A DNA stretch of 64,000 nt from Escherichia phage JP4: the sequence record PQ330092; one strand, 5' to 3'. A program made the position numbers and the translations under genes. Positions 35,300 through 38,488 of the stretch are shown one piece after another. The notes beneath the pieces are model-generated. The model worked only from the letters and a program-made list of their open reading frames with translations. It was not told where the DNA came from and searched no databases. Numbering within the stretch: position 1 is the stretch's first letter; every line of letters begins with the position of its first letter.

Positions 35300-35788
35300 T
35301 TATACGGATTCAACAATACGTGCCATCTTTTCCGCTCTTGAAGTGGTTTGTTTATACCATGTACTATCACGCAATTCCTTACCAGCAGTTTTATAATCAG
35401 CCTTACCTAATGCGGTCATTGCTTTTTTAAATTTTAAAACTTTGGTTTTGCCCATCTGGAATACCATCAACCATAATACACGTTGAACCTGTACAGGTGC
35501 GGTCATACCAAATTGTTCATAAATTGATTTTGCATCATTGTACGCAGTTTGAGCATCTTTAAGAAGAAGTTGGTCAGCTTGTGCTTCTGTTAAACCATTC
35601 TTGAAATTTTCACCAGGTAAAACTAGGTGACCATAGCCAATAGTATCAAGACCTAAGCTGTCTTTATATACCCAAAACTTATCATTTTTAAAATAACCAA
35701 GTTTTTTCTGATAAGCAATAGTTCCTTCAAATTCTTTAATTTCCTTAAAAAATTGCTCATCTGTATTTTTAATTTCCCATTTACTCAT
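35300..35788 (-). CDS. Lysozyme, T4 e-type (glycoside hydrolase family 24), 162 aa
   Basis: EFEGT.AYQ..LGY, DTIGYGH, MVFQMG, TWYKQT.SRA match T4-lysozyme signature blocks; TATAAATA box about 18 nt upstream. Confidence 0.85.
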   Translation of the reverse strand: MSKWEIKNTDEQFFKEIKEFEGTIAYQKKLGYFKNDKFWVYKDSLGLDTIGYGHLVLPGENFKNGLTEAQADQLLLKDAQTAYNDAKSIYEQFGMTAPVQVQRVLWLMVFQMGKTKVLKFKKAMTALGKADYKTAGKELRDSTWYKQTTSRAEKMARIVESV

Positions 35789-35804
35789 AAAGATATCCTC
35801 GTTT

Positions 35805-35812
35805 TATTTATA
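35805..35812 (-). promoter_or_regulatory. T4-type late promoter box (TATAAATA) for the lysozyme gene
   Basis: Reverse complement of tatttata; RBS gagga between box and ATG. Confidence 0.55.
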
Positions 35813-35824
35813 GTACTAAAATAT

Positions 35825-38488
35825 TTATTGACATGCCTCTAAACGACGAGCCATTAACTCAGCACGGCGAGTAGTTTGGCGATACCAAGCTGAATTACGT
35901 ATTTGAGCAGCAGCTTGTTTATAATTACCTTTAGCTAATTCAGACAACATAGTTTTAAATTTAAGTACCCCACCTTTACCCATCTGGAATACCATTTGGC
36001 ATAGTACTTGTTGAGCCAAATAAGGTGTTTTCATGTTGTATGAAGCATAAATTGATTTAGCATCATATATAGCTTTACTACTATCACGAACTAACATATC
36101 GTTGGCTTGCTGTTCAGTTATTCCATCTGAAAAGTTTTCACCATTAATAATTAAGTGACCATAACCAATAGTTGGATACCCACGACTATCCAAATAACGC
36201 CAGAATTTACCATTACGATAATATCCTTTTGCTTGTTGGTATTGTAATGTACCTTCATATTCTTTTAATTCAGAAATAAATTGTGCATCACCTGGAACAA
36301 CTTTCCAATCGATTGCAGTTTTATCAACATTTCCAATATTATAGGTAGGTTGCTCCACCGGAGTTGTTGAAGCTCCACTTCTCTGTGTTCTTCTCCTACG
36401 AGGCACATGACGAGAACCACGTTGAGAATATCCAGTACCTATCGTTTTGATTTTTGTTGTAACTACCAATTCATCACTATCAACTGAAGGTTGTACAACT
36501 GCTTTTGGAGCAGATTGATTAGTTGCTTGACCACCAATTAATGTTTTATTCGCCGCATCAGACCCTGTTCCTGTTTGTGAAGCATAAAATAATCCTGGGT
36601 CAACAGAACCACTGAATCCAAGAACATTTGCTGATGTAACACGAATTTCAAACTGTATGACACCATTTGCTTTTCCAACAACTTGACCTTTTTGAACAAC
36701 ATCTTTGTTTAATAAATCAGATTGAATATTATAAAAAATAGATTTATATCCAGACTTATGTTGTATTAAAAGAGCACCATTAGTAATTACTACCACACCA
36801 CCATCTGGTGCAACTACATCACCTTTACATTGTATTTCCCAACCTGAACGGTCTGCCTTTCCTCCACTTTGTGTTGGAACACCTTTCCCCCAGTAACCAT
36901 ATTGTCGAATAGTACCGCTACATGGCATTAACATATGTAAACCTTCATATGTAATACTATATCCAGTCATCCCAGGATCAGATGTCATCAAATCTTGTGA
37001 TTGAACTTGTTCAGTTTCTGATGTATAGTTAACAAACTGAACAGCTTCAGTGTCTTGTGCTACGGGTAATTCTGGTGATACATCATTTGCTGGTTGTGGT
37101 TGTACTGGTGATTCACTAGAACCACTTCCACCACCTTGTCTTGGTGGTTCAACATAACTACCATGATTTTCAGCGTTAACCCATGCAGCAATATCATGAA
37201 TGTGTTCATTAAGACCAGCAGATGGTGTTCTAAAGTTTGGTGCAGTAAATTCAGCAGTACCGCTATTACCACCACTATTAACTGTTAATGTTTGACCACC
37301 ACCACTAATAATTGCTGATGATGATCCAATTAGGTTTGCAGATGTTGCGGCAGAAATAGAAGCATTTGAACCAGCCGTAATATCAGTACTGCTACCACTT
37401 TGCATACGTAATGATGCAGCAGTAACTAAACGAAGGTCTGCCCCAGAATTAACAACAACTTGTCCACCAACTTTTGCATCAAGAGCACCAATTAGATCTA
37501 ATTTAGTATTTGCACCAACTCGTGCATTGAAATCTTGTCCGGTTTCAATATTATATGAACGTCCAGCAGTAATATTAATATCTTGACCAGCACGAATATT
37601 AATATTCTTATCACAGTGCATGTCAATATCACCTTCACCAGTGAATTTTATACGTGCAGTGCCATCACGATTAATTAAAAGAACATCACCAGTAGCTTCT
37701 GATAAAAGAAGTTGTGCACCACTACGTGTTTTTATTACGACACCTTCATTTTTACGAGAACCAACACGTGTATCGTTTACTGGGTTATTAAATTGTGTAT
37801 CTTGATATCCATCTGGGTCTTGATCCCACGTTGGTGCTGTTAATTCCTCTTCAGTATATCCATCATCAATAATAAAACTATTACCACGTGGCGAAGACAT
37901 ACCATATACAGTACTGGTGGTTTGTCGAGTACTACTACGATTCGCCAACCCAGCTTCTTCGTCATATAAAAGGTTTTGCTTTTTAAGACCTGCGATAATT
38001 GGAACGTTAGCATATTTGTCTTGCATATCGGTAGTGATAGTGTTACGATCATAGTCAGTAACAGGAAGTGGCATATCAGTTCCACCATAATTACTTACTT
38101 CAGTTGCCATACCTGGAACCATCGTATTCATACGCTGGTCATATACACAACCAATCCAATATGCTTGGAATGTACGGGCTTGTGCAAAAATTACAACAAC
38201 TGTACACCCTACGTCTGGTGGTACTGCCCAAAAACCGTATCCTTTTGGATATTGACCATATGCATCAGCACTTGGAATACCTGGTGTTTTACCAGCAAAA
38301 GGAGACATGTAAGATGCTTCTATCCATGATTCTTTTGAGTTTTTATCACTTTGAGAACCTTGTATCCAAACTTTCAGTTTTCCTGATTTAGTTGGATCTC
38401 TGTTATCCATAACAGTTGCTAACTGCGGATAAGATGGGTCAAAACGACCCAACTGCTGTTGTGCATACTTTTTACTTGTATCTGCCAT
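35825..38488 (-). CDS. Baseplate central hub / cell-puncturing protein gp5-like with C-terminal lysozyme domain (887 aa)
   Basis: N-terminal gp5-type region (ATVMDNRDPTKSGKLKVWIQG); Gly-rich repetitive beta segment; M23/LytM-like barrel with substituted His positions; C-terminal GH24 lysozyme domain (YPTIGYGH, MVFQMG, AWYRQT.RRA). Confidence 0.75.
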   Translation of the reverse strand: MADTSKKYAQQQLGRFDPSYPQLATVMDNRDPTKSGKLKVWIQGSQSDKNSKESWIEASYMSPFAGKTPGIPSADAYGQYPKGYGFWAVPPDVGCTVVVIFAQARTFQAYWIGCVYDQRMNTMVPGMATEVSNYGGTDMPLPVTDYDRNTITTDMQDKYANVPIIAGLKKQNLLYDEEAGLANRSSTRQTTSTVYGMSSPRGNSFIIDDGYTEEELTAPTWDQDPDGYQDTQFNNPVNDTRVGSRKNEGVVIKTRSGAQLLLSEATGDVLLINRDGTARIKFTGEGDIDMHCDKNINIRAGQDINITAGRSYNIETGQDFNARVGANTKLDLIGALDAKVGGQVVVNSGADLRLVTAASLRMQSGSSTDITAGSNASISAATSANLIGSSSAIISGGGQTLTVNSGGNSGTAEFTAPNFRTPSAGLNEHIHDIAAWVNAENHGSYVEPPRQGGGSGSSESPVQPQPANDVSPELPVAQDTEAVQFVNYTSETEQVQSQDLMTSDPGMTGYSITYEGLHMLMPCSGTIRQYGYWGKGVPTQSGGKADRSGWEIQCKGDVVAPDGGVVVITNGALLIQHKSGYKSIFYNIQSDLLNKDVVQKGQVVGKANGVIQFEIRVTSANVLGFSGSVDPGLFYASQTGTGSDAANKTLIGGQATNQSAPKAVVQPSVDSDELVVTTKIKTIGTGYSQRGSRHVPRRRRTQRSGASTTPVEQPTYNIGNVDKTAIDWKVVPGDAQFISELKEYEGTLQYQQAKGYYRNGKFWRYLDSRGYPTIGYGHLIINGENFSDGITEQQANDMLVRDSSKAIYDAKSIYASYNMKTPYLAQQVLCQMVFQMGKGGVLKFKTMLSELAKGNYKQAAAQIRNSAWYRQTTRRAELMARRLEACQ

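Follow-up and report, generated by a model that had tools for sequence, protein, structure and literature searches.

A central spike with LytM-like and lysozyme modules and an adjoining free lysozyme paralog in Escherichia phage JP4

Introduction

Phage T4 encodes two paralogous lysozymes, gp5 and e, and the beta-helix of the spike protein gp5 is capped by the PAAR protein gp5.4. In gp5, the lysozyme follows the OB fold and precedes the helix, with which the chain ends, while the free paralog is encoded at a distance. Spikes of the P2 gpV type, such as P2 gpV itself, phi92 gp138, and R2 pyocin PA0616, combine an OB fold, a beta-helix, and an HxH motif, and their chains end about 12 residues past this motif, which is the apex signature of such spikes (bioRxiv 10.1101/2023.02.25.529910). 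Evolved VgrG proteins of the T6SS, e.g., VgrG-3 of V. cholerae, carry a C-terminal cargo enzyme beyond the beta-structure as well as a fused N-terminal gp27-like module. The central spike of phage 812, which comprises a coiled coil, a knob, and a phosphodiesterase and meets a Gram-positive wall, presents a distal enzymatic petal domain to the target envelope (PMC13433997).

The closest described counterpart of the locus analysed here is the gene pair CBB_240 and CBB_239 of Enterobacteria phage vB_PcaM_CBB, which, together with its RaK2-like orthologs, is the same gene pair (Buttimer et al. 2017, PMC5259590). In that study, the CBB hub was found to have a gp5 OB domain at its N-terminus, an M23 match in its centre, and a lysozyme at its C-terminus, it was explicitly contrasted with T4 gp5, and the adjoining free T4-type lysozyme was described. 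Moreover, the RaK2-like hub was confirmed as a structural protein, whereas the free lysozyme was not. A literature search found no structural paper on the RaK2-like baseplate.

The locus in phage JP4

The window, i.e., the whole stretch of 64,000 nt from Escherichia phage JP4 (PQ330092), shows 100% identity to phage vB_EcoM_CRJP21 of the PBECO4/121Q group, as does the hub protein to its counterpart in that phage. Two minus-strand open reading frames, 35825-38488 (887 aa) and 35300-35788 (162 aa), encode the cell-puncturing tail spike and the free lysozyme of a known RaK2-like jumbo coliphage (Asteriusvirus). The features of the locus, all on the minus strand, are as follows.

35825..38488, minus strand: central spike or baseplate hub protein, 887 aa (open reading frame; identity to vB_EcoM_CRJP21; ortholog in virions)
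38138..38431, minus strand: OB-fold domain, residues ~20-117 (Pfam Phage_base_V and AF2/Foldseek)
37739..38137, minus strand: conserved middle region, residues 118-250, mixed alpha/beta (AF2 secondary structure)
37229..37738, minus strand: residues ~251-420, a beta-helix segment in which residues 294-413 make up ~15 octapeptide repeats (Pfam DUF2345, periodicity, phmmer)
37196..37204, minus strand: H429-x-H431 motif, which may form an intermolecular histidine cage, a metal site at an apex of the gpV type (alignment A1)
36959..37153, minus strand: linker 1, residues 446-510, rich in Pro, Gln, Ser, and Gly (composition)
36569..36958, minus strand: degenerate LytM/M23-like beta-barrel, residues ~511-640, predicted non-catalytic (profile against PDB, AF2, Foldseek, conservation)
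36308..36568, minus strand: linker 2, residues 641-727, in which the basic motif YSQRGSRHVPRRRR is conserved (conservation, pLDDT 50-68)
35825..36307, minus strand: C-terminal GH24 (T4-type) lysozyme domain, residues 728-887 (Pfam, PDB matches)
35805..35812, minus strand: TATAAATA, late-promoter box of the T4 type, 17 nt before the ATG of the free lysozyme
35300..35788, minus strand: soluble GH24 lysozyme encoded as a separate protein of 162 aa, paralogous to the hub C-terminus (open reading frame; Pfam 37.0 bits against a cut-off of 22.3)
34889..35284, minus strand: gp25-like baseplate wedge protein, the next gene of the baseplate module (Pfam GPW_gp25, E 1.2e-8)

This layout is genuine, yet it was already published in 2017 for the CBB ortholog (PMC5259590). 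Nothing essential differs from CBB_240 and CBB_239, and the JP4 window is another member of the group, with 58-60% identity to the GAP32-like and Serratia BF-like loci that were aligned. What is added here beyond that study is the family-wide degeneracy of the LytM domain, an invariant HxH motif, and lineages that have no free lysozyme gene.

The spike half of the hub protein

The sequence-only reading of this DNA had described the hub as an N-terminal gp5-type domain followed by a repetitive beta segment, an M23-like barrel, and a C-terminal GH24 lysozyme, and this order was confirmed by Pfam, periodicity, and AF2/Foldseek. Phage_base_V (PF04717) matches residues 23-116 (E 8e-7, 29.8 bits against a cut-off of 23.8), and the AF2 model of residues 1-470 matches the central spikes of eCIS, T6SS (VgrG), T4 (gp5, 1k28), phiKZ, R2 pyocin, and P2 (gpV) in Foldseek, in which VgrG and eCIS spikes match the OB and helix parts better than gp5 does. 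The middle region shows high column conservation in the homolog alignment (0.71-0.84). In the beta-helix, DUF2345, a VgrG-type beta-helix family, matches residues 278-329, residues 294-413 exhibit an 8-residue periodicity (autocorrelation 0.36-0.41 at lags 8 and 16), and phmmer aligns the segment to VgrG beta-helices, while Pfam matches in hub homologs include both Gp5_trimer_C and DUF2345. Linker 1 coincides with the first part of the AF2 model of residues 495-700, where pLDDT is low. The presence of this protein in virions is known from its phAPEC6 ortholog gp241, which was detected by MS (PMC7247149).

Directly after the helix, H429 and H431 are found in 87 of 87 homologs and H442 in 81 of 87 (alignment A1), and the chain continues for about 455 residues to its C-terminus. 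Three chains would probably join these HxH motifs in a histidine cage, a Fe-type metal site as in gpV, although this reading of the motif as an apex is tentative because the shorter homologs do not have the motif near their C-termini: many have no HxH at all, and in a group of ~555 aa it stands ~93 residues before the end. When phmmer aligned the HxH region to VgrG1 (4uhv), the match was to a C-terminal His run that is probably a purification tag, and this alignment was discarded.

Like T4 gp5, the hub combines an OB fold, an octapeptide-repeat beta-helix, and a GH24 lysozyme that the spike would bring to the periplasm, and in both phages the genome also encodes a free GH24 paralog. However, the contrast with T4 gp5 that had been drawn from the letters alone holds, the helix ending at about residue 420 of 887 and the GH24 domain (728-887) following both the helix and the LytM barrel. 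In addition, the HxH after the helix and the LytM module set the hub apart from gp5, and the free paralog adjoins the spike gene. With P2 gpV, phi92 gp138, and R2 pyocin PA0616, the hub, known from its sequence and a monomer model, has in common the OB fold, the beta-helix, and the HxH (Foldseek matches 4s37 and 3qr8), whereas its chain extends far beyond the point at which theirs end. The cargo enzyme beyond the beta-structure recalls evolved VgrG proteins, an analogy of layout only, but the gp27-like module of the latter is absent: neither Pfam nor the AF2 model revealed such a domain in the hub, whose OB fold begins at residue ~20. The cargo likewise resembles the distal petal domain of the phage 812 spike, although it consists of LytM and GH24 modules. 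Since the HxH directly follows the beta-helix, 'rearranged gp5' is probably the wrong frame for the hub, which may tentatively be seen instead as a whole spike extended by cargo at its C-terminus.

A degenerate LytM barrel

Pfam detects no M23 match in this hub at E<=0.1, while precomputed PF01551 matches exist in 13 hub homologs, nine of which were re-scored with E values from 7e-10 to 2e-5. In the search of PDB with a profile of the full-length alignment, T4 lysozyme entries dominated, and a cut sub-alignment was used for the LytM region, which retrieved LasA (3e-6), SpoIIQ (6e-6), and DipM (3e-4). The AF2 model has pLDDT >90 across residues ~514-654, and Foldseek matches it with probability 1.00 to DipM, EnvC, LytM, and lysostaphin, the top matches being DipM, PrgK-LytM, EnvC, and Csd2 (~2e-6). 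The M23/LytM-like fold that the first reading had perceived is thus borne out by profile search, structure model, and homolog annotation together.

An hhalign comparison of the LytM sub-alignment with a catalytic domain of lysostaphin aligned only 19 columns at 50% probability, which is too short for mapping motifs, and, therefore, Pfam profile coordinates in the homologs were used together with the M23 motif positions. At the positions equivalent to the zinc-binding and catalytic residues of M23 enzymes (HxxxD, HxH, and the catalytic His), the hub has R547, E551, N587, V610, and Q612. Histidine occupies the HxH-equivalent columns in none of the 87 homologs, and each of them keeps at most one of the five canonical residues, so that the domain is degenerate; the suspicion that the usual histidines are substituted and the barrel probably non-catalytic is, therefore, valid for the whole family. 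The barrel is nevertheless conserved (column identity 0.6-0.8), with P522, G525, W550, G580, and R616 invariant, and, among 1.84 billion representatives, a LytM domain of the hub type occurs in this architecture only.

The LytM domains of DipM, EnvC, and Csd2 are non-catalytic regulators. Degenerate LytM domains of this kind, including also those of NlpD and SpoIIQ, have the barrel but not the zinc ligands, as in the hub, and several of them are among its best matches. However, they are bacterial regulators of amidases, lytic transglycosylases, or partner proteins, whereas the hub domain sits on a phage spike.

Linker 2 and the C-terminal lysozyme

Linker 2 contains R690, G691, S692, and P696, which are invariant or nearly so in the homolog alignment, and YSQRGSRHVPRRRR in this linker is a possible processing or hinge site. 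The Phage_lysozyme match covers residues 765-882 (45.2 bits against a cut-off of 22.3), and T4 gp5 and T4L lysozyme are found among its PDB matches. The catalytic equivalents E745 and D767 are each kept in 86 of 87 homologs and T773 in 61 of 87, and, thus, the hub GH24 domain is predicted to be catalytically intact.

The free lysozyme and its origin

The free lysozyme aligns colinearly, end to end, with hub residues 725-887 (53% identity over 158 aa, hub 728-885, E 4e-57), and it keeps the catalytic Glu and Asp in the same EG...D...TIGYGH pattern; inspection of its 162 residues shows no hydrophobic N-terminal stretch. The strong similarity noticed at first sight was, therefore, upheld by aligning both domains, although the shared sequence blocks that had been cited for it, while present, are not specific to the pair: they are features of a GH24 subfamily that also includes the endolysin of the T5-like Pantoea phage AAS21, whose identity amounts to 47% with the free copies and 44% with the hub domains. 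This type of endolysin, the nearest outside relative, adjoins a holin and lies only 7-8 identity points beyond the paralog; paralogs within a genome average 54% identity.

A domain duplication, as had been proposed, is the parsimonious explanation of this pair, the free and hub C-terminal clades being sisters with parallel topology in an NJ tree; however, the bootstrap value for their joint monophyly is 18.5%, and the free copy of one divergent locus (L026) falls outside the group of the other free copies. In most loci examined, the free lysozyme gene separates the spike gene from the gp25-like gene, while in several divergent lineages it is absent and the hub gene is followed directly by gp25 after a gap of 10-11 nt.

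A late-promoter box and a probable role in lysis

The window contains six TATAAATA boxes against 10.9 expected, so that the motif is under-represented, and each of the six precedes an ATG on the matching strand by 17-50 nt. Moreover, the PBECO4 counterpart of the gene at window positions 41940-42779 is annotated as a gp55-like late sigma factor. The idea that the free lysozyme has its own late promoter fits the box found here, but not the family at large, as the exact box before this gene is restricted to the 121Q/PBECO4 group and RaK2 and is not conserved across genera.

As to the function of the free lysozyme, its ortholog LysUE1 has been purified and is muralytic (PMC12805682), in agreement with the initial assignment as an endolysin. 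However, the gene is flanked by the spike and gp25-like genes, no holin or spanin is adjacent, and the protein named as endolysin by Buttimer et al. (2017, PMC5259590) is a different, membrane-anchored LysM-GH24 protein. This third GH24 paralog (121Q gp532), with a TM anchor and a LysM domain, would be situated ~25 kb past the low-coordinate end of the window according to 121Q coordinates, and no third GH24 copy was found inside the 64 kb. The endolysin label is, therefore, unproven for the free lysozyme, and LysUE1, which has been assayed as an 'endolysin', is perhaps not the enzyme mainly responsible for lysis. The papers on phages Sharanji and fEgEco12 held nothing decisive on lysis genes. 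An ortholog of the free lysozyme is absent from the virion table of phAPEC6, which is weak evidence for a protein of 18 kDa because the gp25-like protein of the same phage was also missed by MS (PMC7247149).

Proposed model and alternative explanations

Taken as a whole, the locus is best explained, with good likelihood, by a trimeric spike with LytM and GH24 cargo and a free lysozyme that arose by tandem duplication and serves in lysis. The 887-aa protein, which we infer to be a trimer, would form the central spike of the contractile tail, its self-contained N-terminal half comprising an OB fold for docking to the baseplate hub, an octapeptide beta-helix, and the probable three-chain histidine cage. 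Beyond the helix, three C-terminal extensions of ~50 kDa each would follow, in which a flexible linker carries the two cargo modules, namely the LytM barrel without zinc or catalytic residues and the predicted intact GH24 domain. Tail contraction would drive this spike across the outer membrane, and the three GH24 domains would digest peptidoglycan locally, allowing the tail tube to reach the inner membrane. The LytM module would take part without cleavage, most likely in a binding or regulatory role towards peptidoglycan or the adjacent lysozyme, by analogy with EnvC, DipM, and SpoIIQ. The free lysozyme would most likely go back to an ancestor of the core RaK2-like clade in which the hub gene was tandemly duplicated at its 3' end, and it would be a late-expressed muralytic enzyme, probably no component of the virion, whose most likely task is host lysis alongside the membrane-anchored LysM-GH24 enzyme from another part of the genome.

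Among the competing explanations, it is conceivable, though on balance doubtful, that the hub is a T4 gp5 with permuted domains and the free lysozyme an endolysin split off by duplication: its OB fold, octapeptide helix, and GH24 domain correspond to the three types of module that make up gp5, T4 has its own pair of paralogous lysozymes, LysUE1 is muralytic, a late-promoter box is present, and the nearest outside relative is an endolysin beside a holin. This explanation conflicts with the invariant HxH after the helix, which T4 gp5-type spikes do not have, with the extra LytM module, and with the greater closeness of OB fold and helix to VgrG and eCIS spikes, while its endolysin part is at odds with a holin-less neighbourhood and with the SAR-like LysM-GH24 protein to which the literature gives that name. 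A horizontal origin of the free lysozyme, e.g., from a T5-like endolysin gene that landed beside the hub gene without duplication of the hub 3' end, is unlikely. The within-genome paralogs are closer to each other than either is to the AAS21 enzyme, the NJ topology keeps them as sisters, and a position immediately 3' of the donor domain with end-to-end colinearity is what tandem duplication predicts, even though the slight preference of AAS21 for the free copies, the low joint bootstrap, and the stray L026 copy favour acquisition.

Even less probable is that the free lysozyme, instead of acting in lysis, is a low-copy virion or baseplate-assembly component, such as a second tail-associated lysozyme. 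Its gene does sit inside the baseplate module in most loci examined, and most genera have no exact late-promoter box of its own there, which suggests co-transcription with the hub gene; yet virion proteomes of RaK2-like phages have neither revealed the protein nor confirmed it as structural, it has no extra domain for anchoring to a baseplate, and several lineages dispense with the gene. As for the barrel, an enzyme acting through non-canonical residues would account for its good conservation and invariant positions, but such activity is highly improbable given the lack of His at the HxH-equivalent columns, the near-complete loss of the five residues in every homolog, and structural matches that include the non-catalytic DipM, EnvC, and Csd2. 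By analogy with such regulators, a more elaborate version of the preferred spike model may be imagined, in which a gpV-class needle with a histidine-cage tip in mid-chain bears an EnvC/NlpD/DipM-like LytM domain that would gate the fused lysozyme until the periplasm is reached or activate host amidases at the entry site. This is a speculative proposal with a slim chance of being right; if true, the phage would use a bacterial autolysin-regulator domain within its entry device.

Implications

These findings leave the current understanding of phage entry unchanged, but, for phage therapy work on Asteriusvirus phages, they make clear that the genome encodes three GH24 enzymes that differ in their predicted roles. 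In addition, the locus is a reasonably clear case of a virion enzyme domain giving rise to an adjacent free paralog. It also illustrates how contractile-tail spikes are built from exchangeable modules, as related proteins consist of the OB-plus-helix core alone, or of this core with a GH24 or a GH19 domain.

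Baseplate locus and source phage

The window comes from an Asteriusvirus jumbo coliphage, and a 4-kb query around the locus matched Escherichia phage vB_EcoM_CRJP21 at 100% identity, PBECO4 at 99.9% and 121Q at 95.8%. The central spike protein (the hub) and the adjacent free lysozyme belong to a baseplate module on the minus strand, with the following gene order.

Genes of the baseplate module
40763-41077, minus strand, gp53-like wedge protein
38502-40751, minus strand, 749-aa virion protein
35825-38488, minus strand, 887-aa hub
35300-35788, minus strand, 162-aa lysozyme
34889-35284, minus strand, gp25-like protein
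34055-34819, minus strand, HNH homing endonuclease, 254 aa (PHROG 559, E 8e-57)
30589-34050, minus strand, 1153-aa gp6-like wedge protein

The HNH endonuclease gene separates the gp25-like baseplate gene from the gp6-like one. Only ~100 nt are found at its position in PBECO4, and its 121Q homolog bears the annotation 'associated with group I intron'. It appears to be a free-standing mobile endonuclease, variable among phages that are near-identical.

The spike half of the hub

The sequence-only reading described the hub as gp5-like with a rearranged domain order: a gp5-type domain, a repetitive beta segment, an M23-like barrel and a C-terminal GH24 lysozyme domain (hub-C). All these elements were found by Pfam, periodicity and modelling.

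Domains of the hub
residues 23-116, OB fold (Phage_base_V; Pfam)
residues 278-329, VgrG-type beta-helix (DUF2345; Pfam)
residues 294-413, about 15 octapeptide repeats (autocorrelation 0.36-0.41 at lags 8 and 16)
residues 765-882, Phage_lysozyme (Pfam)

Modelled with AlphaFold2, residues 1-470 (mean pLDDT 85) structurally match the central spikes of extracellular contractile injection systems, T6SS VgrG and phiKZ, and likewise T4 gp5, R2 pyocin and P2 gpV. While the domain layout stands, the gp5 frame fits less well. Right behind the octapeptide repeats, H429-x-H431 is present in 87/87 aligned homologs, and H442 is kept in 81/87. An Fe-holding HxH histidine cage is the only feature conserved in every gpV-type apex domain, whereas spikes without HxH, e.g., T4 gp5, have a separate PAAR tip protein (bioRxiv 10.1101/2023.02.25.529910). 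Since the hub, unlike T4 gp5, carries an invariant HxH after its beta-helix, it reads better, from its sequence, as a complete gpV-type spike with a C-terminal cargo of ~455 residues than as a domain-shuffled gp5. This reading is tentative, because HxH cages also serve as trimer clamps in fibres (bioRxiv 10.1101/2023.02.25.529910) and because the HxH sought near the C-terminus of shorter homologs of the spike half was not so placed: many have none, and in a ~555-aa group it lies ~93 residues from the C-terminus.

The homologous proteins P0087-P0116 have only the OB-plus-helix half in common with the hub (27-35% identity), and their C-termini carry no domain, a Phage_lysozyme domain or a GH19 (PF00182) domain. 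The cargo modules on the spike core appear to be exchangeable.

A degenerate LytM module

As Pfam reported no Peptidase_M23 in the hub itself at E<=0.1, the M23 assignment was put to an independent test. Precomputed PF01551 matches exist for 13 full-length homologs, and on re-scoring nine of these gave E-values from 7e-10 to 2e-5. When 33 family members were used to make a profile of residues 508-640, a search of solved structures with it matched the M23/LytM chains LasA (3e-6), SpoIIQ (6e-6), zoocin A (3e-4), DipM (3e-4) and EnvC (0.08). The AlphaFold2 model of residues 495-700, with pLDDT >90 over hub residues ~514-654, matched LytM domains in Foldseek with probability 1.00, the best being DipM, PrgK-LytM, EnvC and Csd2. 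Together, these results establish the LytM fold and bear out the proposed barrel.

The proposed replacement of the usual histidines holds across the family. The five canonical positions of the M23 motif were mapped via Pfam profile coordinates on homologs and correspond to R547, E551, N587, V610 and Q612. Histidine is absent from both HxH-equivalent columns (0/87 at either), and each aligned homolog retains at most one of the five canonical residues. The domain is degenerate and cannot function as a canonical peptidase. If EnvC, DipM and SpoIIQ are a guide, it would probably act as a binder of peptidoglycan, of the adjoining lysozyme or of a host autolysin. Among 1.84 billion representative proteins, phmmer found the module only in hubs of the same architecture (870-984 aa), apart from one 84-aa fragment and one weak repetitive match.

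The model also matches 9k2v_A (Foldseek, E 2.4e-5), a chain of 907 aa from the pre-ejectosome of cyanophage A4, so the ejection proteins of unrelated phages may contain LytM-like modules.

A conserved basic linker, YSQRGSRHVPRRRR, connects the LytM and GH24 modules. Its motif GxGYSQRGSRHVPRRRR (hub residues 681-700, in window 36308-36568, minus strand) is conserved family-wide, whereas the linker around it varies and has predicted disorder. The basic stretch may be a hinge, a processing site or an interaction site.

The free lysozyme and its origin

The close similarity suggested for the two lysozymes is confirmed, with 53% identity over 158 residues (E 4e-57) and colinearity over the whole length of the free enzyme. 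The equivalents of T4 lysozyme Glu11 and Asp20 in the hub, E745 and D767, are each conserved in 86/87 homologs, and the free lysozyme has the same catalytic Glu/Asp pattern. The sequence blocks they were said to share are present but not private to the pair, since the lysozyme of the T5-like Pantoea phage AAS21, encoded next to a holin gene and 44-47% identical to both, has them too.

The order 749-aa protein, hub, free lysozyme, gp25-like and gp6-like recurs in 22 related hub loci, in three of which the hub is cut at a contig end. In Klebsiella phage RaK2, a 1.8-kb insertion (L021:6661-8446, RaK2 locus) separates hub and lysozyme; it contains two reverse-strand ORFs of 152 and 140 aa. The free lysozyme gene is absent from two divergent lineages, P0080 (hub 40% identical) and P0076 (45%), where 10-11 nt separate the hub stop from the gp25 start, and from two more distant loci, L036 and L039.

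In a neighbour-joining tree of GH24 domains, 14 free lysozymes form one clade and the 14 hub domains of the same genomes form its sister, with parallel internal branching. Mean identity between genomes is 67% among free lysozymes and 65% among hub-C domains, as against 54% for free versus hub-C within a genome; the AAS21 endolysin averages 47% to free and 44% to hub-C sequences. The simplest reading, in line with the proposed domain duplication, is a tandem duplication of the hub gene 3' end in an ancestor of the core clade. Bootstrap values are 59.5 and 62 for the free and hub-C clades but only 18.5 for their union, and the free copy of the divergent locus L026 falls outside the group of other free lysozymes, so that the free gene could instead stem from capture of a related endolysin gene.

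Probable late promoter

The ATG of the free lysozyme is preceded by TATAAATA, 17 nt upstream. This motif is under-represented in the window (6 observed vs 10.9 expected), and each of the six boxes is followed, 17-50 nt downstream on the matching strand, by a ribosome-binding site (SD) and ATG.

TATAAATA boxes
35805, 41844, 46494, 48384, minus strand
54342, 55551, plus strand

A gp55-like late sigma factor is annotated at 41940-42779, and the boxes fit T4-type late promoters that this factor would read. Late expression of the free lysozyme can safely be inferred. The promoter of its own that had been proposed is a feature of this phage but not of the family: the exact TATAAATA precedes the lysozyme only in the 121Q/PBECO4 group and RaK2, and other genera have only AATAAATA, overlapping the hub stop codon. 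The RaK2 lysozyme's own TATAAATA box lies 44 nt upstream of it.

Published record and proposed function

The sequence-only observation as a whole was correct and its interpretation mostly sound, although the finding is an already published feature of a sequenced phage. Orthologs of hub and free lysozyme were described in phage CBB by Buttimer et al. 2017, where CBB_240 has an N-terminal gp5 OB domain, a central M23 match and a C-terminal lysozyme, a layout set against that of T4 gp5, CBB_239 is the free T4-type lysozyme, structural confirmation covers only CBB_238 (gp25-like) and CBB_240, not CBB_239, and the endolysin named is CBB_187/121Q gp532 (PMC5259590). In phAPEC6, the 95.9-kDa hub gp241 was detected in virions, but none of the small proteins adjoining it (PMC7247149). 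The literature search yielded no structural study of a RaK2-like baseplate. The modest additions here are the family-wide loss of M23 catalytic residues, the invariant HxH behind the beta-helix, a LytM lineage limited to one architecture, and several divergent lineages that lack the free lysozyme gene.

The hub trimer would most likely be the puncturing spike of the tail, pushed through the outer membrane by contraction, whereupon three intact GH24 domains would open the peptidoglycan locally. The spike of phage 812 similarly carries distal enzymatic domains and provides a structural precedent (PMC13433997).

The free lysozyme would be a soluble, late-expressed and active muramidase, probably not packaged in the virion. 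Its 162-aa ortholog LysUE1 from phage UE-S1, once purified, lyses E. coli, and does so better with EDTA (PMC12805682). The best guess is a part in lysis alongside a membrane-anchored LysM-GH24 enzyme, the third GH24 paralog of the genome, which lies beyond the window: 121Q gp532 (308 aa; L004:11192-12118, 121Q locus) combines a LysM domain with a membrane anchor at the N-terminus and GH24 at the C-terminus, and is 32-36% identical to hub-C and the free lysozyme. By tblastn, three GH24 places occur in most RaK2-like genomes sampled.
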